DNA of 64,000 nucleotides, from positions 1,810 to 65,809 of the IMG/VR virus record IMGVR_UViG_3300044971_003100. One strand, given 5' to 3'. Within the stretch, counting starts at the first letter, position 1. Every line of letters starts with the position of its first letter. Of this stretch, positions 11,686 through 50,393 are shown piece by piece. Origin of the DNA: a virus (lineage: Duplodnaviria > Caudoviricetes). The notes under the pieces were generated by a model. That model ran no database searches and had not been told where the DNA came from. It was given only the letters and a program-made list of their open reading frames with translations. Both the position numbers and the translations under genes were made by a program.

Positions 11686-12069
11686 TTAGAATACTTGTCC
11701 AGTTCTGACCTCTGAGAGGTCTGCTGGTAGTGATGGATACTCTTTGTTCGTTGGCTTTCTCGTTATCCACCAATCCTTTTCCACTGGCGTCAACTTTCTG
11801 TTGTAAATTGTCAAGACCTGGGTCCATTGGTGTCCAGTCTGATCTGTTGCTATGACAGCATAGCTCGGACACCTGGACGCGGCTACATCTGGAACAAAGC
11901 GTCGACCTACTCGGTTCCAGCTCGGCTCCTTGCCCTTCCAGCTCAGGCGACAGCAGGGCCAGGGCAACTCTTCTCTGTCATACAAGCGACAGACCGGCCC
12001 TTGGATGCAGTACAGGAAGCTGCCACCAGGGGATCTGATGAATTTGCCGTTATTTAACGGATGATTCAC
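11686..12069 (-). CDS. hypothetical phage protein
   Basis: 127-aa ORF; 4-nt overlap with 12066..12314. Confidence 0.6.
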   Translation of the reverse strand: MNHPLNNGKFIRSPGGSFLYCIQGPVCRLYDREELPWPCCRLSWKGKEPSWNRVGRRFVPDVAASRCPSYAVIATDQTGHQWTQVLTIYNRKLTPVEKDWWITRKPTNKEYPSLPADLSEVRTGQVF

Positions 12070-12343: not shown

Positions 12344-13837
12344 CTAAGGATTTCGTGCCGGCGGTTCGGCTACCTGGGTTCGGTTATTGGCGGTTCTGAT
12401 TGGCGGCAAACTATCGCTACCGCCGCTTGATGCGGCCTCCTCTTTCGAGATTCTGTTCATTTCCTCTTTGATCTTCATGTCTGGATCTAAAATTCCACCA
12501 CGCTGCAGCTCCGCAAGTACTGTCTGACCGCTAAGCAGTTTCGAGTTATACAGATTAACAAGTTGAGCGATGCCACTTGGATCAATGGGTCGATTTATCA
12601 AGCTATCGTTAAGTGCTATGCCAGATTCCGCCGTCAGTTTTGCTAGCTCCCCAGCATAGACAGCCCACAGTCGCATAACAGTGTTAAAGGAACTGGTCTT
12701 ATTGCGCACCAGAGATGCAACCTGTGACGCTATCTGAGAAGCCCTTAGTGATGCTTCTGTTGCCGTCTTGATATTTGCTCCATACAGGAAATTGAGACCA
12801 GACCTGTCCATCAGGGCTTCCAGGTGCGTTACTTCCGCTTGATGGCGCTCAAGGCTGCGGCCAGTCGGCTCAGCAAAAGCGAATTCGCCGCCATCCGCTG
12901 GCAGGTCAACCGCAGTATTTGGCCCCAGGATCAGTGGTGCAGTGCGTCCGTCCGGGCCAACGGGGGCACCTTTTCTGACCGGCACCGGCATGGCGCATTT
13001 ATGCAGCAATTCCGTTAGGTCGGATCGCATTTGGTAGTGCTGAATGCTCAGTTCAGCAAGACCATTCATTGGTAAATCACCTTGAGCAAATCTGCTAGTT
13101 GATGCGCCATACCATATCAACGGAACAACAGGTAGTGTCGTTGGCACGGAGCTGACCAGTGTCTGTCTCCATTTGCCATCTTTCTTTTCCATCCTATATT
13201 CTTCTACAAGATTTGGCTTCAGTACATAGTAAACAGGCTCCAGCCTGACGCCAAACCCATCATCCATTGGCATCGACTTGATCTGGCGAATTGTTGCATG
13301 CTGGATAAATTCGCGTCCGCCATTATAAGCAACAGACCAATTTATGACATCTTTTCTTTCTATCAAAATCACATAAGGCCTGCGGCCATCACGCTGTTGA
13401 TCCAAGAAATTCGATGTTTGGTCCTGCTCCGGCATCATATCAACCATCACGAAGACACCACCGTCCCGGATGGCTAATTCGTCACAGCGATTCCAAAAAC
13501 TCTGGATACTGGATCCTTGCAGGTCGATATTGCTTTCCGAATTGCTAAGACTGGGGGGCGCATCAACAAGTTGAAAGCGATTCAGCAGGCCCGCATATGC
13601 TCGGATCGAATCTCTGAAAATAGGCGTATAAGTAGACCTGTGCAGTCTGGCCTCGTAGGCTTTCTTGGGCTCAGCCGGTTCCTGTACCAGATATTTAGGC
13701 TTAGCCGACCCCCTGCCGTTTGTATCCAACAAATTCCAACAATCTAGTGCCAGTTCCAGACCAGGCAGCAGATCAACCAGCTCTGGCCGGTGGTAGCTGA
13801 CCAGTCCTGGATTGTCAGTTGGATGTACGACCTTCAT
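12344..13837 (-). CDS. portal protein (DUF4055-type)
   Basis: 497 aa; YLVQEPAEPKKAYEARL, NIDLQG, RRPYVILI..DVINW, LAELSIQHYQMRSDL, KTATEA, LAELQRGGIL. Confidence 0.85.
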   Translation of the reverse strand: MKVVHPTDNPGLVSYHRPELVDLLPGLELALDCWNLLDTNGRGSAKPKYLVQEPAEPKKAYEARLHRSTYTPIFRDSIRAYAGLLNRFQLVDAPPSLSNSESNIDLQGSSIQSFWNRCDELAIRDGGVFVMVDMMPEQDQTSNFLDQQRDGRRPYVILIERKDVINWSVAYNGGREFIQHATIRQIKSMPMDDGFGVRLEPVYYVLKPNLVEEYRMEKKDGKWRQTLVSSVPTTLPVVPLIWYGASTSRFAQGDLPMNGLAELSIQHYQMRSDLTELLHKCAMPVPVRKGAPVGPDGRTAPLILGPNTAVDLPADGGEFAFAEPTGRSLERHQAEVTHLEALMDRSGLNFLYGANIKTATEASLRASQIASQVASLVRNKTSSFNTVMRLWAVYAGELAKLTAESGIALNDSLINRPIDPSGIAQLVNLYNSKLLSGQTVLAELQRGGILDPDMKIKEEMNRISKEEAASSGGSDSLPPIRTANNRTQVAEPPARNP

Positions 13838-13908
13838 GGGGCATCGCGCCTAAAGTTCTGCCGGCGTCTCGCCTTTGGCTCCCCTAGGGTTCCAGGAATA
13901 CTATGAAT

Positions 13909-14701: not shown

Positions 14702-17700
14702 TCACTTGAGCAATCCAGCTTGATCAGAGTCTTTCTCTGATTCTGTTAAACACTTAGCTGAATCACAGCCAGCAGCACCTTTCAGTTCATAGTCCGCATT
14801 GTCGTATTTCTTCAATAGGTCAAGAAATGTAACATCTTCCGGCAGCATTGAGCGAACGATTTTCACCGTAGCCATGCGACGTTCGTACATCTGCTTGTCG
14901 ATTGGTTCAAACGGCAATCGTGGGAATGTTTCGTTTGCATCGAACCTGGCAAGCAGAGCAGCCGAAATGTATCCACCATCCGACTGGATTGACTGGTGGA
15001 CTAAATTAGCCAGTTGGTCTATTTCGTCTTGACGAAACTCCAGGGTTGCGGATGTGTTGTGCTGGGTGTATTCTTTTTGAACCTGCATATAGAGTCCCCA
15101 CTGAGCGCTAACTGGTAACTTGCTAAGGTCGAACTCATCGCAACCAGGTAAATTAGCCCACGATACTTCTGTGGGGATTTCAACCAACACTTCGCGAACC
15201 CTGGGATCGCTGATGTCATCAAGCAGGTTACCGTCTTCGTCCCTGGCGCTTTGTGCTGGAATTACGTTGTAGCCGTAATCACGCAATGCACTGACCAGTG
15301 GATCATTTACGCCAAAGGTAATCCGGCGGATGAAGCGCTGTGCCTTCGGCGGATGCCAGCCGCTGCTAGCGCCGGTCAACAGGCTCTTGGAGCCAGCAGG
15401 TTGCACTGTGGTGAACCTGTTTGGGACACGAATACCGTGCTGCTCGCAGTAGTCCCTGACACCCTGCTCGGCAGCAATCCTCCAGCCCCTGAGGAATTTC
15501 TTTTCCCTGGCATCGTACTTCTTGCACTCAGCACCACCAGGGCGACCTTTCATCATCCACTTCAGCCAAGGGGCACCAAAAGCATGCACAAAAAAGTCAA
15601 ACAGGCCAGTAAAACTGACGCCAACAATCGGATCGTTTTCACGGCTATAAGAAAGGCGCTCGGGGACAAATTTGTGTTGTAGCAGGGCCGCAACTTGCAG
15701 ACCACCGGCATAGAATGCCTGACGTTGCAGCTCTGAATCACTTGGATCGATAGTATTCAGATGGACCTCACTGAGGTTACATACGTTGTCACGCATAAGG
15801 ATTTCACCGCACTGTGCCACTAACAAAAGTGCCCCAAGGGTAAAGGCATGACTTCCGGGTACGGTGCAGCAGTACACTTCTGGCGCTGTGTACGCAAATT
15901 CAATGGAAGAGACAACATTGGATTTACTCTTTACAGAGTGGGAGGTCTCTCTGCCTGCAAAAGATTTAAGGCGTTCAAATCTTACCCGTCTAGCCAGAAT
16001 AATAGAGTTATATTGAGAAATAGCAAGCCGGTAGGTGTCTTTAACTTGACATACTCCCCCTTTGTCTGGACCAAAATCTTTGATGCCACCTTCGCGAACC
16101 GGACCGATTTTTGAATTGATGCCCATGGTGCGCAGTAAGGCCACTAGTCCACGCAAGAATGGCAAACTTACGCTGGTAAGTTGATAAGAAAAACCCTTTT
16201 TGCTATCCATCGCAGTGCCATCTGCATCGAATAATCCGGCTATAAACTCACCTTTCGCCTCGTCTGTCCAATTAAGCACCTCGTCGGGAAATGTGTGCTT
16301 ATATTTGTAACACCATTGATTCATGTCTTCGCAAGTAGAAGACAGTCCACGGATGTAACCAGCCCCGGTCAGCACTTCTAGATCATCAAATGCTCCAAGC
16401 TCAATGAGAGATGCACGTAATCGATCCGCGCAAACTTTTTTTGGTGCGTACACCTTACAGAAAGCGCCTTTCCCTTTATTTGACGTACCATCTCCGATCA
16501 GGAAGCCCTTCAGGTATGCGCCCTTTGCGTTTACTGAACCCTTGACCGGTTCAATCGTAGCAGCCAGTAGCTCATTGCCGGGCTTCAGGTCCTTCAGTTC
16601 TCTTCTGGTTCCATCTTTCAGGATAAACTTGTGGTATTCAGTAGCTGTAATAACTGTCCCATCATGCAATATTACATTGTAAACATCTTGATCATTAGCA
16701 GTAACCCGGAAATTGTCAATGACGCGCCACTCGTTCCCATCATGAATTTCAACAGTCTCGCCAACCAGTGATTCGATCGGGAAATAACCTTCCCTGGTCA
16801 TCACAATAGTGCCCGGAGCAAAGCACGGATTAAGCCCGTACCTATCCATCCGATGCTGAATGATGCGTTCATCGGTTGGTTCACCAGCTTTTTCCGCTAG
16901 TTCGGTCAGCATCTGACGTGCATCATCCTGACTGCGCACGTACAAAGCAAGGAACCGCTTCTTTAGTTGTTCTGTATTCAACAGGTCGGCATTTGCCCTG
17001 GCGATCGACTCTGGCACATACATGATGGCACCTTCGCCGGACCAAAACTGCTTTTCGATACTGGCCCTGATCGTTTTATGGTCAGGTTTCGCATGGAAGC
17101 ACAGGGTGTGATTGGCCATCCTGAGTGCTTCTTTTTCGGGATCTACGCTCCAGTTGCCGTTTTCATCCTGCTTATACAGGCCATCTTTGGCCGAAGCGGC
17201 CTCATTGTCGCAGGACGAAAATTGGCGCATGCCGGCGCTGCGGCGGATGTTGCCGGCCACTACTGCACTGGCTGCTTCATCAATCAGCAAGCAGCACTCA
17301 ATCGATGTCAGCTTGCGCCCCTTGGCCTTGCAGAGCACTTTTGCCGCCCGCTCAAACGTCTCCCGCAGCCGAACAGGGTTAGCAGTGCCACCAAAGCCCT
17401 TGAGGGGTTCACCCGCCTGGCGGACGTGACTCAGATCCAGCACTATTTCGGCATCGCAGTGGACTGTGTCCTCTTCCTCGTCTTGAGCCGGGTACCCCAT
17501 AGCTAGGGTAATTAAACCCTGGTAGGCACTAGCCCAGCCCTGACGGGAATCGCCAACCTTGATTGTGATGATTGGCTTTTCATCAACAATCCCAGTAAAC
17601 CTGATGGTTGTATCTGCATCGCCACCCTTGATTCCTTCGTTGTTCCTGATATTGCTAATAGAAACTTTTCTTTGAATTGGCGGCATGTTGTTTACAACGT

Positions 17701-18067
17701 CTTCCTCCATGACGGCGCCAGTGCCTGTTCCCATCATGGCCAGCTCCATCAGCAAGCCAAACATCGAGGGATCGTTTGCGTGCATCGAGCAGCAGTTGTA
17801 GTACCCAGGGAAGTTCTCTTGCTTCTTGGACCACTCCGTACCTGCAACCCACAACGCACGCCCGCTAGGGAAGCATTGCTGTCTCAGTCCAGCTTCAATA
17901 CATAGCGCCTTCTGCTCCTGAGTAAATTTACCTACCTCTGCGATGGCAGATATTGTACGCGTAATTGCCTCTTCAAAGTTTTCACGCGACCCGTCTGCCT
18001 TACGCCGGGAGTACGAACGATAGAAAACCGCAGGCCCAGAAGGAGCGAATTGACCGAATTCCGACAT
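14702..18067 (-). CDS. nrdJ: class II (B12-dependent) ribonucleotide reductase with intein
   Basis: PSGRALWVAGT, YNCC, DSRQGWA, VVAGNIRRSA, NP[intein]CGEI, CNLSEVHL, TTVQPAGSKSLL, C-terminal CDSAKC; likely start MSEFGQF. Confidence 0.93.
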   Translation of the reverse strand: MSEFGQFAPSGPAVFYRSYSRRKADGSRENFEEAITRTISAIAEVGKFTQEQKALCIEAGLRQQCFPSGRALWVAGTEWSKKQENFPGYYNCCSMHANDPSMFGLLMELAMMGTGTGAVMEEDVVNNMPPIQRKVSISNIRNNEGIKGGDADTTIRFTGIVDEKPIITIKVGDSRQGWASAYQGLITLAMGYPAQDEEEDTVHCDAEIVLDLSHVRQAGEPLKGFGGTANPVRLRETFERAAKVLCKAKGRKLTSIECCLLIDEAASAVVAGNIRRSAGMRQFSSCDNEAASAKDGLYKQDENGNWSVDPEKEALRMANHTLCFHAKPDHKTIRASIEKQFWSGEGAIMYVPESIARANADLLNTEQLKKRFLALYVRSQDDARQMLTELAEKAGEPTDERIIQHRMDRYGLNPCFAPGTIVMTREGYFPIESLVGETVEIHDGNEWRVIDNFRVTANDQDVYNVILHDGTVITATEYHKFILKDGTRRELKDLKPGNELLAATIEPVKGSVNAKGAYLKGFLIGDGTSNKGKGAFCKVYAPKKVCADRLRASLIELGAFDDLEVLTGAGYIRGLSSTCEDMNQWCYKYKHTFPDEVLNWTDEAKGEFIAGLFDADGTAMDSKKGFSYQLTSVSLPFLRGLVALLRTMGINSKIGPVREGGIKDFGPDKGGVCQVKDTYRLAISQYNSIILARRVRFERLKSFAGRETSHSVKSKSNVVSSIEFAYTAPEVYCCTVPGSHAFTLGALLLVAQCGEILMRDNVCNLSEVHLNTIDPSDSELQRQAFYAGGLQVAALLQHKFVPERLSYSRENDPIVGVSFTGLFDFFVHAFGAPWLKWMMKGRPGGAECKKYDAREKKFLRGWRIAAEQGVRDYCEQHGIRVPNRFTTVQPAGSKSLLTGASSGWHPPKAQRFIRRITFGVNDPLVSALRDYGYNVIPAQSARDEDGNLLDDISDPRVREVLVEIPTEVSWANLPGCDEFDLSKLPVSAQWGLYMQVQKEYTQHNTSATLEFRQDEIDQLANLVHQSIQSDGGYISAALLARFDANETFPRLPFEPIDKQMYERRMATVKIVRSMLPEDVTFLDLLKKYDNADYELKGAAGCDSAKCLTESEKDSDQAGLLK
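15812..16825 (-). mobile_element. intein (338 aa) with LAGLIDADG homing endonuclease
   Basis: Begins CFAPGTIVMT; block B ATEYHKF; LAGLIDADG motifs YLKGFLIGDG and FIAGLFDADG; block F VYCCTVPGSHAF; ends LLVAQ before extein Cys. Confidence 0.92.
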
Positions 18068-18138
18068 GATTGAAATTAAAGGGACTTTAGATTGCCGCAA
18101 GTGACGCGAAAATAGCCGTACTCAAGCCGTAAATCGAC

Positions 18139-20540: not shown

Positions 20541-21209
20541 TCAGTCTAGCCGGGTAACCGGGTCTGGTATTGATAATTTTTGTTGCCTCAGGCCACTGGT
20601 CATCGACGTGAACTGCCTGACCGGTGGCTTCGACAGGTCGCCCCTGCAGTAAGACGCCATAGAGTTGTAATCCTTGGTGGACAGCGCCTCAACCATTTCC
20701 CTCGCCTTCTCTCGATAGTCTATTTTGAAGTCCATCTCTTCTGGCTCCAGCGGATCCGTTGGCATCGCTTGATCTTTTAGCTCAAGCGGCGGACCAGAGC
20801 ATGCTGATCTGGTTTCCTGCCACTCTCCAAGCGATATACCTAGCTTTTCGGATATTGCTATGTCATTAGATCCATTGAATAGCAATCTGCGTCCTTTGAC
20901 CCAATTCTCCCGCATGCGATGTGACAAACGCATTGCATAAGTGCGATCCCTTACCCAGTGCAAGATTTCGCCTCTTATTGTTGGCGTTGCTAAGCTAGAA
21001 AATTTGTAGCCCGATTCCGGGTCATACCGATGGCATGCCTTACATAAACCAAGGAATGCAGCACCCTCCAAGACCGAATATTCGATGCCTGTCGTCCTCT
21101 GAACACGCCAAGCTTCCCTTCTTGCCAGGTTTATATTCTCCGCAGCCATTTCTTGCTGCTCTGGTGTTAACTGGAAGCTTTGCGGTTTCTTTGCCATAAC
21201 CTTAGTCAA
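20541..21209 (-). CDS. alternative sigma factor (SigF/SigB/FliA-like)
   Basis: ENINLAR, GLCKACHRYDPESGYKFSSLATPTIRGEILHWVRD (region 2 of SigB/F type). Confidence 0.85.
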   Translation of the reverse strand: MTKVMAKKPQSFQLTPEQQEMAAENINLARREAWRVQRTTGIEYSVLEGAAFLGLCKACHRYDPESGYKFSSLATPTIRGEILHWVRDRTYAMRLSHRMRENWVKGRRLLFNGSNDIAISEKLGISLGEWQETRSACSGPPLELKDQAMPTDPLEPEEMDFKIDYREKAREMVEALSTKDYNSMASYCRGDLSKPPVRQFTSMTSGLRQQKLSIPDPVTRLD

Positions 21210-25856: not shown

Positions 25857-26268
25857 CCACTCGACGCCTGTCTTGAGTATTCCAGAATTCGGCCCAGCTC
25901 TTCATATATGGCTCAATATCAGAGCCATCCCACTGGTCAACCGGCGCCGGTTGAGCTGCTTTTGTGTTGCCATCTCTGGAGATGGATATTTTCAACAGAA
26001 CGAGATAGCCAATCAGATCCTGCAAGACATCCTCATCTGTTGCCAGCAAACCAGCCCCCTTAGCAATGCGCGACAGTTTGTCATCTATCCTGACGCACAA
26101 CTGCTCCGAAGTGTCCGCCTTGCTGAAGATCCTGGATGGATTCAGCGCAGAATCTCCGTACTTCTTGTTCTTTTGCAGCAACAAGTTTTTAACATCATCG
26201 CAAACCCTAGAGATTTGCTGTTGTGTATCAGTCATTGCTTTCAGTTTGGCGAATCGACCTGGCATCAA
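25792..26268 (-). CDS. DUF1599 / nucleotide-modification-associated domain protein
   Basis: LLLQKNKKYGDSA...VRIDDKLSRI...EDVLQDLIGY. Confidence 0.75.
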   Translation of the reverse strand: MMPGRFAKLKAMTDTQQQISRVCDDVKNLLLQKNKKYGDSALNPSRIFSKADTSEQLCVRIDDKLSRIAKGAGLLATDEDVLQDLIGYLVLLKISISRDGNTKAAQPAPVDQWDGSDIEPYMKSWAEFWNTQDRRRVDALSSDDAEVLELHTSGDRFG

Positions 26269-26488
26269 ATACGGTAATTGTTCGATTACCCATCGTTAGC
26301 GTAACCTGGCAGTGATCCTGCTTGCTAGCTATAACGCGCCCAGTACTCCAGCCAGCTCCCAAGTAGACCTGAACCATCGTTCCTTTGCGAAAGATCGGCA
26401 AGGGAAAAGATGGCCCCGCCAGCCTTTTATGGTCAGGGACTGCCCTAGACTTTGACTTCTTGGTTGGTTGCGTAGTCTGGCTTGACAT
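26228..26488 (-). CDS. hypothetical protein (SH3-like)
   Basis: 86-aa ORF, FRKGTMVQVYLGAGWSTGRV. Confidence 0.55.
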   Translation of the reverse strand: MSSQTTQPTKKSKSRAVPDHKRLAGPSFPLPIFRKGTMVQVYLGAGWSTGRVIASKQDHCQVTLTMGNRTITVFDARSIRQTESND

Positions 26489-26954
26489 AGTCTGGGATAC
26501 GGTTGAATCGCTTATTGGTTAACTCCATTATAAGATGCTGAGGCAACTTTGCTCCGGTGGCCGCAGCCCAGGAAATAATTGTAGAAATATTGTCCCCAGT
26601 TAGAACCCAGAAGTCTTGGCTTTCGTTGTATCGAAGAATACCTTCGCTGACAAAGTCGCCAAGTGCTTCGTCGATCAACTCTTCAAGTCTGGTATTTTCG
26701 CAGTAGTCTTCGTTGAACGGATCCCATCCACCAACTTTCAAGTCGCTGGTCGAACAATGGGGTACTAAACTAGCTTGAATTTCGTGGCGACGTACGGCGC
26801 CGCGATGCAACAGTATTGCAATCACGTACGGCTTTACATTCGAAGCTAATAATATCGGCGTTTCATCCATCAGCAATCCACACGCCCCAGGCGCAATCTC
26901 ATCGATTCTCGGCGACTGATACATGACTACTCCAAAAAGAAAACAGCCAGGCAT
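26445..26954 (-). CDS. hypothetical protein (winged-helix-like)
   Basis: 169-aa ORF in the operon. Confidence 0.6.
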   Translation of the reverse strand: MPGCFLFGVVMYQSPRIDEIAPGACGLLMDETPILLASNVKPYVIAILLHRGAVRRHEIQASLVPHCSTSDLKVGGWDPFNEDYCENTRLEELIDEALGDFVSEGILRYNESQDFWVLTGDNISTIISWAAATGAKLPQHLIMELTNKRFNRIPDYVKPDYATNQEVKV

Positions 26955-27403: not shown

Positions 27404-28201
27404 CTATACCGCAGTGGCAATCAGCCTGAGTTTCTCAAGGGCAGTTTCACGCAAAGCAGCAACCTTTCCCCTGGAGATCGAATTGGCGTGCATTATGTCT
27501 TTAACTTTCATCTCATCTATAAACAGGCTTTCCAGTACCTTGACCTGATCGTCACTTAGCCCTGCCGCCTGGATCAGGTCATCCATTTCACACGAAAAAC
27601 GAGCCGTGCTTTCGGTGCTGGGCGGATACTTACTTTCTAGGCACTCAATGATCGAAATATCGCCATCTTCGCCTATTGGTGTATCGACAGAGATTACCGC
27701 TTGAGCGGAGCGCACAAGTCTTGTTAACGCTTCGCCCGCTTCGTGGCTTTTGTTTTTAACGAATCCGTACTTTTCAAAGGAATAGGCATCACGACAGGCG
27801 TTTTCCGGTATATGAAATATACTAGACGCCTTGATCGCGTAACGACCGACAAAAGACCTGATCCAGTAGGTTGCGTATGTGGCAAAAGTATAACCAGTTT
27901 CTGGGTCATACTTTTCTGCAGCCCTTATCAGGCCGAGCGCTCCTGTTTGCAGCAGATCGAGTGTCTCCGGGCCTCCCCATCCTTTCTTCATCTTGCCGTC
28001 CATGTACAAATGGACCGACCTGATAACCAGTCTCAAGTTATGAGACACCAACTTGTTCACATAGAACTTATACTTTGGGCTCCCGACCTCGTGTGACTTA
28101 ATCTTCTTTGCGATGATCAGCATTTCTTCTTTACTCAAGACCGGCTTACTGCCTGCGGCGTTCATCCAGGCAGTAATTTCGTTGCTCAAGCTTTTCGACA
28201 T
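27404..28201 (-). CDS. sigma-70 (RpoD/RpoS-like) factor
   Basis: LVSHNLRLV, DLLQTGALGLIRAAEKYDPETGYTFATYATYWIR, ISVDTPIGED, region 4 ALEKLR. Confidence 0.92.
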   Translation of the reverse strand: MSKSLSNEITAWMNAAGSKPVLSKEEMLIIAKKIKSHEVGSPKYKFYVNKLVSHNLRLVIRSVHLYMDGKMKKGWGGPETLDLLQTGALGLIRAAEKYDPETGYTFATYATYWIRSFVGRYAIKASSIFHIPENACRDAYSFEKYGFVKNKSHEAGEALTRLVRSAQAVISVDTPIGEDGDISIIECLESKYPPSTESTARFSCEMDDLIQAAGLSDDQVKVLESLFIDEMKVKDIMHANSISRGKVAALRETALEKLRLIATAV

Positions 28202-29175: not shown

Positions 29176-29511
29176 CTAGCGGTTTGTCCTGGCATTTAGC
29201 AACTCAAGGGCTTCTTTGATTTGGTCACGTTTTGTGAACTTTGATTTTCGCTGCGCCAGCCAGTCCCTGCTGGGCCCTTCTTTCGCCTTTGTAGCTGGCG
29301 AATTCAGCTCAGGATGTTCCTCTTGATACCGTTCGACCCAGAGATCAATCATCCATCGCTTGTACAACCCAAGCGGTCCAATCAGGCTCCATGCCCATTT
29401 TTTTGTGCGTTTGCCGACCAGGACCATGCCAGCCAGGGATTCCCCGATTTCCAGCCACCCCTCCTCAAGGGCTGCCTGCTCTGCGGCTGTCAGTGGCTTG
29501 GTCTTTCCCAT
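29176..29511 (-). CDS. hypothetical phage protein
   Basis: 111-aa ORF, first gene of the leftward unit. Confidence 0.6.
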   Translation of the reverse strand: MGKTKPLTAAEQAALEEGWLEIGESLAGMVLVGKRTKKWAWSLIGPLGLYKRWMIDLWVERYQEEHPELNSPATKAKEGPSRDWLAQRKSKFTKRDQIKEALELLNARTNR

Positions 29512-29549
29512 GTCACCACCATACCAACCCGCTCCAGCGCGTACGCGCT

Positions 29550-29772
29550 TTCTTTTCTTAATATTTTCTACTCTTTTATAGTAAGAAGTAAACCTAAAAC
29601 CGTAGACAAGTATCTTAAAGCTAAGAGTTTCTTTTTAAGTGACGCATTTTGCAACGCGATCCCGTCTGGCATGTTGCAAAAAGCGTCAACCCGTGTTGTA
29701 AAAAGCGACAGCCTTTGTCGCACTATGCAACGTGTTTTTGTCGCAAAATGCAACGCTGTCGCAAAATGCAAC
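29550..29772. repeat. putative replication origin: AT-rich tract plus six 16-bp iterons
   Basis: TGWCGCWNWWTRCAAC at 29640(+), 29673(-), 29695(-), 29716(+), 29739(+), 29757(+); directly upstream of the initiator gene. Confidence 0.8.
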
Positions 29773-29816
29773 CTGTTTTTGCAGTAACTCTTAACAAAGG
29801 TTCGTTGCCTGCCTTG

Positions 29817-30845
29817 ATGCCGGTCGCTAGTGTGGATACACAACTGCCCCCGCTCGTGAAGATCTCTGTCTCCAAGGACACGCCATGGGAACCAGTTGTC
29901 TACGCAAAGGCGCCCTTGGAGCTGTTGTTGTGCGACGATCTGACGCCAAACAGCAAACTGCTCTGGATTGTTCTTGCTAACCAAGTGCAGTTTGGTCCGA
30001 TCTGCAGGACAGTCCTTGATCGCAGGATAGGCATACACAGGGCGACCAGGATTCGTTGCATGGCCGACCTGAAAGAACTTGGCCTAGTGTCCGGTACTCC
30101 AGAACATATCATTCTACATGATCCAGTACCGATACTGCGCCGCCTAAGGGAAGTTGACGCGGAATCAAGGGCAATCGTAGAGCAACAGATGCTTCAGCCC
30201 TACGAGGAGGTAAAGAAGAAAGTCGCTCCACCAAAAGCGCAGGCAAATTACTTCGATGAAGCTACAAATGCGTGGAATGAATACAGACCAGTTAATTATG
30301 CGAAAATCAACAGACTTAGCGCTCAACTACTGAAAGCAGTGGATTTGCATATAAAAGCACTTGGGCACAAGTCGCATGACTACAAGGGGTTCTTCTCTGT
30401 GCTCAAGGCCGGAGTTGATCACTCCATTTTCTGGTCAAAAGAGAATACCAGTAAAACACTTCAAAGCATCGTTGGTATTGGCCAGCCTCAAACTAAAAAG
30501 TATCAGAACGTCTACTCACTTTACAATGAAGGGTTGAACTACGAAAAGCCGCAAGCGGTAAAAGAAGAGGATCGCAGTGACGAAGTCATTATCAAGGCAG
30601 CCATGAGAAGGACTATTGATGAATATGAAAATCTGCACTACATGTACTTCAATACATCAAGGACAGATCCAGGCAAGGAGCACGTGTTCAACGATAGGAT
30701 CATAGAAACAGAACAACGCATCCGTGACGCTGGCCTGGACCCCGCCAGATTCAGGATGAAATACCAGTTGACTTCATGGCCAACAGATGTACCAGAGCCC
30801 GCAGATAGCCGCAAGGTTACCTGGATATACGACGACGAGCTGTGA
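29817..30845 (+). CDS. putative replication initiator (N-terminal winged HTH)
   Basis: DLTPNSKLLWIVL...RRIGIHRATRIRCMADLKELGLV; precedes the helicase and follows the iterons. Confidence 0.7.
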   Translation: MPVASVDTQLPPLVKISVSKDTPWEPVVYAKAPLELLLCDDLTPNSKLLWIVLANQVQFGPICRTVLDRRIGIHRATRIRCMADLKELGLVSGTPEHIILHDPVPILRRLREVDAESRAIVEQQMLQPYEEVKKKVAPPKAQANYFDEATNAWNEYRPVNYAKINRLSAQLLKAVDLHIKALGHKSHDYKGFFSVLKAGVDHSIFWSKENTSKTLQSIVGIGQPQTKKYQNVYSLYNEGLNYEKPQAVKEEDRSDEVIIKAAMRRTIDEYENLHYMYFNTSRTDPGKEHVFNDRIIETEQRIRDAGLDPARFRMKYQLTSWPTDVPEPADSRKVTWIYDDEL

Positions 30846-36545: not shown

Positions 36546-36896
36546 TCAGCCGACGTTGTCCACGGCGTCGATGTAGCAGGCAACCAGGGTTGCGGTGCCA
36601 CCGAGATCGTAGTCAACGTTGTTGTTAGCGTCGCACAGCGAACCACGGATATGGGCGATGCCAACGCCGTTGACATCCAGGTCGTTGGCGTTGAAAACAA
36701 CAGACTCACCACCCACGTTGACGGTGATCTTGTTGGTACCACCATTGTCAATGCCACCGGCACCGATAACCACCACGCGAATAGTTTTGATGGTCTTCAG
36801 GTCGAGACCTGCGGCGGTCGGGGTGGCGGTCACTGCCATGGCAGCATCCAGGTCAAACTTCTCGCGGGGAAAAACACCAGTAGAACGTTGAGCCAT
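36546..36896 (-). CDS. putative capsid decoration/cement protein, copy 1
   Basis: Beta-rich 116 aa; paralog of 36987..37346; strong terminator downstream. The function is inferred. Confidence 0.6.
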   Translation of the reverse strand: MAQRSTGVFPREKFDLDAAMAVTATPTAAGLDLKTIKTIRVVVIGAGGIDNGGTNKITVNVGGESVVFNANDLDVNGVGIAHIRGSLCDANNNVDYDLGGTATLVACYIDAVDNVG

Positions 36897-36986: not shown

Positions 36987-37346
36987 TCAGCCGACGTTGT
37001 CGACAGCATCCAGGTAAACCGCCTCTGCGGAAGCTCCGTTGTAATAGTCCCACGATGTTCCGTTTTGGCCATCTTCGATGCTGGACCCACGAACGTGAGC
37101 AATTCCGACACCATTGGCGTCGATGTCTTCACCATAAAAGACCGTTTGCTTGCCGCCAGTGCTGACGCGGATGTAGCCGCCTTCACCGCCTTCTCCAAGA
37201 CCGTCTGCCCCGAGGACAATAATCCTCCAGGTGTTAACGCTGTTCAGGGGGATCGGCGACTGCGTGGTGTTATCCCACTGCACTTCCATTGCGGAATCCA
37301 GGTCAAACTTTTCCCTGGGGAAGACACCGGTAGAGCGTTGAGCCAT
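36987..37346 (-). CDS. putative capsid decoration/cement protein, copy 2
   Basis: Same N-terminus MAQRSTGVFPREKFDLD and C-terminus DAVDNVG as copy 1. Confidence 0.6.
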   Translation of the reverse strand: MAQRSTGVFPREKFDLDSAMEVQWDNTTQSPIPLNSVNTWRIIVLGADGLGEGGEGGYIRVSTGGKQTVFYGEDIDANGVGIAHVRGSSIEDGQNGTSWDYYNGASAEAVYLDAVDNVG

Positions 37347-48169: not shown

Positions 48170-49072
48170 TCAGGACGCAAGCGAGGCAGTAGCGTCCACG
48201 TTGGCGAGACGGGCAGCGGCCCTACCATTGATTAAAGCAAGTCCGCAATACCATTCAACGCGAGTAACCAGAGTGGGCGAATCGGTCGCTTCACCAAGGT
48301 CACGCACCTGAGGGCCGCCGTTCTGCAGACCGGTCAGCAGATCGTTGCCGAAGGCCACCACGTAGATGGACTGATCGCTGGTGTCGCTATCCAGGATAGC
48401 AACGTTCTGGTGGTCGCGATCCAGTTCAAGCACCGGAATGCCACCGTAGAACAGTTGCTGATAGCCGAAGTCGTTGCGCTCGATGTCGATCTGACCGTTG
48501 GCGCGAGCCACCTTGCTCAGATGACGACGAGCGGACTTGGACATCACAAGGTACTTGGTGCCACCTTGTGCATCCACTGCGTCAATAGCTTCGTCCAGGG
48601 CGCCGGTGTCCAGAGCAGCGGGGGAAACGCCGTTGGCGATATACTGGCTGGAGCCAGCGGGCAGGCGGTTTGCCAGGCCATCGAACTCAGCGCCACTGGC
48701 GTTGGAGTCACCGTTGATGAACAGGCCTTCGAAGGCCAGGCGCATTGCGCGGGTCTTGGCTTGCACCTGATAGGCGCGAGCCTCGGGGCCCTCCAGGTCG
48801 ACGATAGCGCGGTCAACCTTGATGTCACCACCGAACAGCTTCAGCGCTTCGCTGTGCTGCTTGACGGTGGCATAGCTTTCGGTATAACCAGCGTTAAACG
48901 TACGGAAACCCACGTCGCCGAGGGACTCCTCACGCTTCCAGAACAGACCGTTGCCCTGAACTTCACGGAACGGCAGGTTTTGCAGCAGGGGACCAGCAGC
49001 AAGCTCGGTGATAATCGCGAGTTCCTGCGGGTTAGTAGAATGCTTCTTGGCTTCAGCAAGAGTTAATGCCAT
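48170..49072 (-). CDS. major capsid protein
   Basis: MALTLAEAKK, GGDIKVDR, FINGD...EFDGL, RVEWYCGLA; follows the scaffold gene and has a strong terminator. Confidence 0.88.
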   Translation of the reverse strand: MALTLAEAKKHSTNPQELAIITELAAGPLLQNLPFREVQGNGLFWKREESLGDVGFRTFNAGYTESYATVKQHSEALKLFGGDIKVDRAIVDLEGPEARAYQVQAKTRAMRLAFEGLFINGDSNASGAEFDGLANRLPAGSSQYIANGVSPAALDTGALDEAIDAVDAQGGTKYLVMSKSARRHLSKVARANGQIDIERNDFGYQQLFYGGIPVLELDRDHQNVAILDSDTSDQSIYVVAFGNDLLTGLQNGGPQVRDLGEATDSPTLVTRVEWYCGLALINGRAAARLANVDATASLAS

Positions 49073-49213
49073 GATTCCTATGGGGGTAGATGAACGTAAA
49101 CAGGAAAGGTAAATCGCTACATGAATGTCTCATCCATTAGCGCTAGACCCTCCCCGATAGGTCATCACAACCAACTCAGGGCTGGGTACTCAAACTTATG
49201 ATACCTAAAAATT

Positions 49214-49239
49214 AAAAAAGGGCCAGCAAAAGCTGACCC
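49214..49239 (-). terminator. intrinsic terminator after the scaffold gene
   Basis: GGGTCAGC-tttt-GCTGGCCC followed by T6. Confidence 0.75.
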
Positions 49240-49261
49240 ATTGTGTATATTTAGGCTTGAA

Positions 49262-49999
49262 TCAGCCAAATGCCTTCAGGAACAGCTCATCACTGCTAAG
49301 CGCACTCAGGTCTTCACTGGTCATGCCATTCATGTCAGTGCCGCCGTAGCCGATACCAGCACCAGACCCCTTGGAGCCCTTGAAGAAGGTGCCATAGATT
49401 GGATGCGTTTTGAATCCACCCAGGTAGTCTTCAGGGTTGATGCGACGGCCGGACTCCTTGTCCAGGATCGGTACACCGTTGGAATCAACAACAGTAATAC
49501 TGTTGTCGGGCTCCAGGCGGAAGTGGCCACCGATTTGATTGGCCAACATGTCAAAAAATGACACGCCATCTGCCGAATCGGTGCGACCGCCAGCGGAGAA
49601 GAATACCTTCTCCAGTGAATAACGCTTACGGAACTCCAGCAGTTCCTTGTAGGCACCATCTCGCTGCTGGACAGCTTCCGCTGCCTGCTTGCCGTACTTT
49701 TCCTCCAGCAATGCCGTGCGCTCATCGGCCGCAGCCTTTTCACGCGCAGCGATAGCTGCTTCCTCCTGCAGTTTGCGGTATTCGTCTGGGTTGATTTGCG
49801 CAAACTTCTCCAGTTGGGCGCTTTTCTCTTTTACCTCTTTCTCGTAGATCTTGCGCGTTTCACGTTCGGATTTCAGCGCCTTCAGCAGGTTCTGAACTTC
49901 TTCTTCGGAATAACTGCGATCATCTGCGGCTTCCGTCGCTTTCTGCTCTTCCGTGTTATCTACACTCGTCTCAAGTGCATTGTTGTTGTCTTCGGGCAT
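49262..49999 (-). CDS. capsid scaffolding protein
   Basis: Acidic N-terminus, coiled coil LKALKSERE, GSGAG linker; directly upstream of the major capsid gene. Confidence 0.8.
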   Translation of the reverse strand: MPEDNNNALETSVDNTEEQKATEAADDRSYSEEEVQNLLKALKSERETRKIYEKEVKEKSAQLEKFAQINPDEYRKLQEEAAIAAREKAAADERTALLEEKYGKQAAEAVQQRDGAYKELLEFRKRYSLEKVFFSAGGRTDSADGVSFFDMLANQIGGHFRLEPDNSITVVDSNGVPILDKESGRRINPEDYLGGFKTHPIYGTFFKGSKGSGAGIGYGGTDMNGMTSEDLSALSSDELFLKAFG

Positions 50000-50393
50000 T
50001 GTTACCAGGCATCACGCCATTTAGTGCCCGCTAGTATGCCAAGAACTAGAACCTTTTAGCGATTTCTGCCGCTGTTTTTTTATTCAGTTGCTGTTGGTTG
50101 AATATATACCTGTTTACCTTTGTTTGCAATTGACTTTGGGTCAACAGATTAATTTTTTGGTAATCGTTTGGCAGTGGCATACTGAACTCCAGCTATTATC
50201 AGTCTCTATATTATTCCTTGCATGATTAAGGTGTTGATGGCACCTGACGTAGTAGAGTTTCTGTCGTGAAGCATTTTGCTGGTGGGTCTAATTTCCTGGC
50301 AAATATCAACCAGATCAAGCGAGGCGCCTTATCCTGTTAAATGTAAGAATTGATCCGTGCTTGTGCTTGGATTCAATGGGCCTGTCGCTAGGC

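Follow-up and report, generated by a model that had tools for sequence, protein, structure and literature searches.

The leaders of the portal, scaffolding protein and major capsid protein genes of a lake cyanophage each carry a pair of hairpins that share one loop type, G-N-G-A-Y, on stems of differing sequence. The phage is represented by a stretch of DNA of 64 kb, here called the window, which is nearly the whole of a 65.8-kb viral record (IMG/VR IMGVR_UViG_3300044971_003100). Comparison with related phages indicates that these hairpins are a real, clade-specific RNA element of cyanosiphoviruses of the S-CBS2, S-CRES and PSS2 type. They are regarded here as putative cis-regulatory operator hairpins, the structure being well supported by sequence comparison and the operator role a candidate function.

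An original prediction, made from this DNA alone, had placed four hairpins at the scaffold and capsid genes and a further pair at the portal gene, two per head gene and six in total, and all six were confirmed on the minus strand. The portal gene (12344..13837, 497 aa; phrog_145 portal, E 1.1e-84; Pfam DUF4055) is preceded by hairpin 1, GGC-GAGAC-GCC (13873-13863), and hairpin 2, GGC-GCGAT-GCC (13850-13840), the latter 2 nt 5' of the portal ATG (13837); homologous hairpins occur in relatives. The scaffold gene (49262..49999, 245 aa; phrog_206, E 6.7e-26) has hairpin 1, GGC-GTGAT-GCC (50008..50018), 8 nt 5' of its ATG (49999), and hairpin 2 inside codons 8-13, at +21 to +39 relative to the AUG. 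The core of the latter, GCACTT-GAGAC-GAGTGT (49978-49962), extends to 7 bp as TGCACTT-GAGAC-GAGTGTA (49961..49979). In the leader of the capsid gene (48170..49072, 300 aa; phrog_212, E 7.1e-75) hairpin B, GGTT-GTGAT-GACC (49160..49172), is enclosed by a helix termed P1. It is followed by hairpin C, CGCTA-ATGGAT-GAGAC-ATTCAT-(G)-TAGCG (49115..49142), which consists of a core (49137-49121) and a CGCTA/TAGCG extension (49142-49115) with one bulged G (49120), and which ends about 45 nt 5' of the capsid AUG.

The placement of these hairpins is non-random, though their overall number matches chance. Over both strands of the window 18 G-N-G-A-Y hairpins with a stem of at least 4 bp were found, which is no enrichment; the minus strand holds 21 with a stem of at least 3 bp (27.3 +/- 5.4 in shuffles) and 10 with a stem of at least 4 bp (10.2 +/- 3.4 in shuffles). 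The three head-gene leaders, however, each begin with a box of the pattern T-N-G-G-H-A-N-N-M-T-A, which resembles an extended -10 promoter element. When this pattern was loosely defined, 38 copies were obtained on the minus strand, and in exactly three cases, the portal, scaffold and capsid genes, two or more hairpins follow within 120 nt. When 17 hairpins were placed at random, such boxes numbered 0.0175 on average, and three were reached in 0 of 20000 trials. Elsewhere in the window a hairpin that carries a GTGAT loop on a perfect stem of 9 bp (ATCCTCCCA-GTGAT-TGGGAGGAT; 6745-6723, minus strand) has no upstream box and probably lies inside an open reading frame (ORF).

To collect relatives, IMG/VR was scanned with the capsid protein, and the best 80 of 168 loci were used; together with S-CRES3 and the window these gave capsid leaders of 153 nt, 58 of them distinct. 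Cut down to the part between box and ATG, 55 distinct capsid leaders remained, S-CRES3 being excluded because the box pattern missed it. At least two G-N-G-A-N hairpins are present in 53 of these 55, compared to 0.37 of 55 in shuffles, and their loops begin at fixed distances, 34-41 and 71-82 nt 3' of the box. Scaffold hairpin 1 is found in 56 of 58 distinct leaders, the exceptions being L047 and L074, and scaffold hairpin 2 has a contiguous stem of at least 3 bp in 43 of 58 (shuffled scaffold leaders: 1.4/58 and 2.7/58 for hairpins 1 and 2). All 49 distinct 25-mers of hairpin 2 pair at five or more of the seven flanking positions. In L047 a deletion (1557-1676) has taken away the start codon of the scaffold gene together with the 3' arm of hairpin 1; this locus may be a defective variant or an assembly error. 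Seventeen distinct portal leaders were compared (13 from IMG/VR and those of S-CBS2, S-CRES1, S-CRES3 and PSS2), and at least two hairpins are present in 13 of them. S-CBS2 shows the hairpin arrangement at its scaffold gene gp036, its capsid gene and its portal gene, S-CRES1 and S-CRES3 carry the same arrangement of box and hairpins, and in PSS2 it is found at the scaffold and capsid genes and is absent from the portal gene. No such hairpin was found in either leader of Microcystis phage Mwe-JY26, Mesorhizobium phage Cp1R7A-A1 or Caulobacter phage CcrPW, whose capsid genes are homologous (37-40% identity).

Some annotations and gene arrangements in these relatives deserve mention. S-CBS2 gp036 (29477-30208; loci L102/L103), annotated as 'host specific protein J', is a homologue of the scaffold protein (57% identity). 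In the S-CBS2 portal gene (annotated 66329-68002) homology begins at 66407, and the annotated coding sequence takes in the two leader hairpins; the annotated start at 66329 is probably too early. Several loci (L023, L026, L030, L072, L073, L081; gp037 in S-CBS2) have an insertion between the scaffold gene and the capsid gene, either an HNH endonuclease gene or a different one. These insertions always lie upstream of the capsid box and leader, both of which are left intact.

Covariation, the absence of which had been named as an argument against a shared RNA motif, was looked for and found in scaffold hairpins 1 and 2 and in the capsid leader. Pair-counting scores were 0.567 for scaffold hairpin 1, 0.701 for scaffold hairpin 2 and 0.495 for the capsid leader, against 0.180, 0.296 and 0.249 in shuffles that do not preserve kinship among the sequences. 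None of 500 such shuffles reached the observed score in any of the three alignments, and controls with slid partners scored at most 0.216. The 25-nt windows used here were the best-pairing G-N-G-A-N sites within the expected range. RNAalifold, applied to 56 capsid leaders (the 58 minus the near-duplicates L029 and L055), predicted P1 (ACCC:GGGT), hairpin B and hairpin C, with changes on both sides in 8 of 13 predicted pairs. Alignment pair 49-57, for instance, is UA in 30 and CG in 26 sequences, and pair 96-104 is GC in 32, AU in 18 and UA in 4. In hairpin C 97.3% of cells are paired in the relatives and all four pairs show changes on both sides.

The position of scaffold hairpin 2 within a gene allows selection on RNA and on protein to be compared. 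Its loop is in phase 0 in 58 of 58 sequences, and the loop codon is GAG in all 57 cases in which it encodes Glu, while elsewhere in the same scaffold genes GAA and GAG occur 912 and 617 times (40% GAG). The codon that follows stands for Met (32), Thr (22), Lys (2) or Asn (1), always with A as its first base. One relative (L064) encodes PGVTPG at this site and still forms CCAGGA-GTGAC-TCCTGG. These patterns indicate that scaffold hairpin 2 is held at the RNA level and not by protein coding. Over the four helices together 124 G.T pairs were counted versus 19 A.C pairs, and because G.U pairs so far outnumber A.C pairs the structure is taken to form on the sense strand. The earlier suggestion that varying stems with a conserved loop follow the pattern of a common recognition element is thus borne out by compensatory changes, codon bias and the excess of G.U over A.C. 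A reading without function, in which the hairpins arise as palindromes by chance or as a side effect of protein coding, would agree with the window-wide hairpin count, which equals expectation, but it is contradicted by covariation, codon bias, strand asymmetry and co-location alike and is extremely improbable.

The loops can be assigned to one class, a G-N-G-A-Y pentaloop that corresponds to a GNRA tetraloop sequence with one additional 3' nucleotide. In the alignments of scaffold hairpins 1 and 2 (A2, A3) loop positions G1, G3 and A4 are invariant, position 2 is free and position 5 is mostly C or U. The loops observed are GTGAT, GTGAC, GAGAT, GAGAC, GCGAT and GCGAC, N being mostly U, A or C; forms with N=G in the counts are off-register matches. 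The original prediction had distinguished GYGAT from GAGAC loops. This split turned out to be artificial, each position in a pair taking either form in relatives. GNRA-like pentaloops with an extra base after the A exist in solved RNAs, and looped-out bases of pentaloop variants touch proteins, according to PMC12550061; a C-GCAAY-G pentaloop family is described in PMC9830547. Pairing of the loops with a downstream CACC box or with the 16S 3' end was considered and rejected, as by eye the GAGAC-type loops do not fit.

The capsid leader is more elaborate than those of the scaffold and portal genes. Its domain 1 (49147..49187) is closed by P1, formed by ACCC (49187-49184) and GGGT (49150-49147). 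A purine run with GGGT(G) at its end, CGGGGAGGGT (49156-49147) here, can instead pair over 10 bp in the window with a pyrimidine box, ACCTTTCCTG (49101..49110), which lies 3' of hairpin C, and the resulting helix encloses hairpin C. The two helices are mutually exclusive. In relatives P1 is paired in 85.2% of cells (pair 29-77 is AU in 19 and GC in 11) and the purine:pyrimidine helix in 74.4%, with up to 10 bp in the clade of the window. The minimum-free-energy fold of the window leader adopts the purine:pyrimidine helix, and its single-sequence folding is significant (z -2.86). Since P1 and the purine:pyrimidine helix are both nearly invariant, covariation cannot choose between them. The pyrimidine box can also pair with the Shine-Dalgarno region, and in 39 of 55 leaders it does so better than the mean of shuffles. 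A role of this box in hiding the Shine-Dalgarno sequence was nevertheless rejected as weak, only 39 of 55 leaders beating the shuffles and many leaders having no Shine-Dalgarno sequence. A helix between the start codon and a GC-rich box 3' of the promoter in the scaffold leader, present in the minimum-free-energy fold of the window, was likewise dropped, as its conservation was not seen in the sequences of relatives.

This architecture might suggest that the capsid leader of about 100 nt is riboswitch-like, with P1 competing with the purine:pyrimidine helix and the GNGAY loops making tertiary contacts; the scaffold and portal hairpins would then be unrelated look-alikes. Two mutually exclusive conserved pairings, the pairing of the pyrimidine box with the Shine-Dalgarno region and the significant folding of the leader speak for such a switch. 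Both long-range helices are mostly invariant, however, many capsid leaders have no Shine-Dalgarno sequence to sequester, Rfam gave no match, and the loop class is also that of the scaffold and portal leaders, which have no larger fold. On balance a riboswitch is improbable.

Each of the three leaders appears to belong to its own transcript. The boxes are GGAACCCTA in the portal leader (13885..13893, extended -10 type), present in 17 of 17 portal leaders of the relatives, TTGGCATACTA in the scaffold leader (50032..50042), kept in the scaffold leaders of relatives, and TAGGTATCATA in the capsid leader (49197..49207), all on the minus strand. The box is enriched in the window (17 matches versus 8.4 +/- 3.0 in shuffles), and by our reading 12 of 13 strict minus-strand copies sit at most 100 nt upstream of an ORF start. 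From these sequence properties we infer that the box is a promoter, and the portal, scaffold and capsid mRNAs each appear to start at their own extended -10-type box. Two phage sigma factors (Sigma70_r2 family matches; genes at 20541-21209 and 27404-28201, minus strand), both conserved in S-CBS2 and PSS2, may read it. A glutamine riboswitch (RF01739, 51.3 bits; 6073-6137, minus strand) lies upstream of a 58-aa ORF (5875-6051) and is preceded by a loose copy of the box, GGTATACTA, at about 6149-6141 (minus strand). The occurrence of the same box 5' of this riboswitch supports its reading as a promoter. Two paralogous small genes (36987-37346 and 36546-36896, minus strand) each follow a box and a conserved leader hairpin (37416-37350 and 36985-36900, minus strand). 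This hairpin, AATC-G-CG(C/T)C, a 12-nt loop and GGCG-GATT, in which the one C-to-T change retains a G.U pair, is a second leader motif, unlike the G-N-G-A-Y hairpins.

Intrinsic terminators are predicted on the minus strand 3' of the scaffold gene (49239-49220), at the same place in most relatives, and 3' of the capsid gene (48153-48136). Promoter-proximal hairpins ahead of strong terminators are reminiscent of lambdoid nut sites, where a small phage protein binds the nascent hairpin, and such a protein might here cause read-through of the scaffold and capsid terminators. The likeness to N-boxB with the P22 N peptide extends to a pentaloop that is GNRA-like in sequence and to the differing stems. 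A looped-out base of the P22 boxB pentaloop contacts the protein (PMC12550061). An 86-aa protein of the window (26228-26488) with a basic tail and an SH3/KOW/Tudor-like barrel could be imagined in this role, its structural matches being weak (E about 0.01). Unlike lambdoid nut sites, the sites described here have two hairpins each, one of them in a coding region, and the extra base follows the A, whereas in P22 boxB it lies inside the GNRA sequence. Neither an N-like protein nor a boxA-like element in any of the three leaders was found: the consensus pattern YGCTCTTTA matched 24 times in the window with at most one mismatch, compared to 24.9 expected, and never in these leaders. Furthermore, the scaffold and capsid genes each lie between a promoter-like box and a terminator, and each terminator is directly followed by a new box, so control by read-through is not required. 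Antitermination is therefore an unlikely explanation.

In the reading that we favour, tentatively and with a probability somewhat short of even, the hairpins would form a common operator at which a single RNA-binding factor adjusts the translation or stability of the head-gene mRNAs. A common reader of the loop is suggested because the loop is identical across three leaders and hundreds of independent stems. The loops would be what a single trans-acting factor recognises. This factor, probably an RNA-binding protein of phage or host that is dimeric or multivalent, would bind both loops and so set translation initiation and/or the lifetime of the head-gene mRNAs jointly. Control could be graded, as the last hairpin lies 2 nt from the AUG at the portal gene, 8 nt at the scaffold gene and about 45 nt at the capsid gene, an order that seems inverse to the copy number needed of each protein. 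Both the existence of this factor and the direction of control are what we infer from the arrangement. A bolder form, which we consider rather unlikely, is a head-morphogenesis regulon in which one protein would read the GNRA+1 pentaloop twice on each portal, scaffold and capsid mRNA and thereby couple translation to assembly. The reader would then be unassembled scaffold, portal or capsid protein or a small phage protein, the distance between hairpin and AUG would set a stoichiometry of 12 : hundreds : hundreds, and in the capsid leader a structural switch would come in addition. The N-terminal region of the scaffold protein of the window is acidic.

Several observations weigh against a shared operator. 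Loop position 5 is occasionally G or A, and the conserved loop could serve folding stability, with no partner needed. Four of the 17 portal leaders (L089, L092, L095 and PSS2) have a single hairpin with another loop. The spacing from loop to loop varies, being about 19-35 nt in portal, 35-43 nt in capsid and 39-61 nt in scaffold leaders, which argues against a rigid dimer. Single-sequence folding is not significant for the scaffold (z -1.71) and portal (z +0.81) leaders. The idea of a head-gene set held insofar as the element is shared by the portal, scaffold and capsid leaders, but S-CBS2 has one such hairpin 4 nt 5' of terS and PSS2 has such hairpins at gp085 and gp086, so a restriction to head genes is not strict. 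A metatranscriptome contig (run X20) spans 48826-49167, which takes in the first part of the capsid gene and its leader as far as hairpin B, with one A-to-G change that retains a base pair; it is weak evidence for transcription of the capsid leader, since it is possibly DNA carry-over and RNA ends, strand and level are not readable from it. Finally, PHROGs and Pfam gave no recognised RNA-binding domain among the 94 ORFs of the window.

The search for a binding protein by PHROGs, Pfam, tblastn and predicted folds of two proteins did not identify one. In the tblastn comparison all window ORFs were set against the motif carriers S-CBS2 and PSS2 and the non-carrier Mwe-JY26, which pointed to core genes of unknown function at 11686-12069, 26228-26488 and 26445-26954. 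The 86-aa protein mentioned above (26228-26488) is conserved, its basic tail is N-terminal, and its predicted SH3/Tudor/KOW-like barrel (pLDDT 79) has weak matches in PDB (E at least 0.009). The fold predicted for the 127-aa protein (11686-12069; pLDDT 72) gave no meaningful match (E at least 0.066, TM at most 0.24). This Trp- and Arg-rich protein is encoded on the minus strand just downstream of the portal operon and has 631 relatives in aquatic metagenomes and no Pfam family.

The lack of an identified binder among the window ORFs would agree with factor-independent hairpins that act as 5' stabilisers or insulators, the GNRA-like loop nucleating a stem near the 5' end that blocks 5'-end-dependent RNases and the flanking hairpins keeping an AUG region without Shine-Dalgarno sequence single-stranded. 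Measured from each box, the first structured element indeed begins after about 9-13 nt, which puts it within a few nt of a transcription start predicted about 7 nt downstream. In all relatives the scaffold AUG is in an unpaired stretch of about 30 nt between hairpins 1 and 2, in which no Shine-Dalgarno sequence is visible, and such a role would tolerate variable hairpin spacing. Stability cannot, however, explain GNGA, and never GNAA, followed by a 3' pyrimidine in several hundred independent hairpins. It also leaves unexplained why hairpins occur at only 3 of 38 boxes and always in pairs, and a hairpin within a coding region is no 5' stabiliser. A stabilising role is thus possible but doubtful, and a shared operator is the reading retained here.

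The phage itself belongs to the siphoviruses of picocyanobacteria. In its capsid protein it shares about 70% identity with Synechococcus phages S-CBS2 and S-CRES1-3 and 53% with Prochlorococcus phage PSS2, and a sequencing-run search found window DNA in lake-water metagenomes. Its ribonucleotide reductase gene (14702-18100, minus strand) contains an intein with a LAGLIDADG domain (Pfam Intein_splicing, LAGLIDADG_3). Three tRNA genes lie on the plus strand (2263-2336, 3656-3728 and 3752-3825). These tRNAs and the glutamine riboswitch are the only matches to Rfam 15 in the whole window at the gathering threshold. A likeness to Rfam motifs, raised in the original prediction, did not emerge for the leaders: a scan of 48900-50300 up to E=10 gave nothing on 49072-49207 or 49961-50042. 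Our literature search found no description of these hairpins, though the list of more than 10,000 candidate viral structured RNAs in PMC10690425 may include the motif. The hairpins would so far form a structured RNA class that has not been described, the box a candidate late promoter of cyanosiphoviruses.

Several known systems share part of this arrangement. In CsrA/RsmA operators two hairpin loops of the same motif occur per mRNA at variable spacing, one of them near the start codon, and are bridged by a homodimer. The logic is alike, but the GGA loop core is absent here, the loop being G-N-G-A-Y. The thrS operator of E. coli consists of two hairpins with the same loop, one on either side of the ribosome-binding region, to which a dimeric protein binds; its loops are of 7 nt and mimic an anticodon loop, while those described here have 5 nt and no tRNA likeness. 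Features of coat operators of the MS2/PP7 type were not found either: the start codons of the three genes lie outside the hairpins, and scaffold hairpins 1 and 2 have no bulge conserved across relatives. T4 RegA, gp32 and gp43 are repressors that each act on phage mRNAs at the start codon or close to it, several mRNAs being controlled in this way (PMC3014915, abstract). The T4 operators are mostly unstructured or specific to a single gene and have no shared pentaloop hairpin pair. Where testable, the defining features of these families are lacking from the cyanophage hairpins.

The proportions of portal, scaffold and coat proteins in tailed phages have largely been attributed to the strength of promoters and ribosome sites. 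The scaffolding protein of P22 autoregulates post-transcriptionally, to our knowledge the only classical case of such control, and we know of no RNA site defined for it. In P22 it is the protein that is known, in the present phage the RNA sites that are defined. They are mapped to the nucleotide, about 55 relatives provide natural compensatory mutants, and the S-CBS2/S-CRES/PSS2 group includes cultured members, so that in cyanosiphoviruses, whose gene regulation appears little studied, the question of how these proportions are kept is directly testable.

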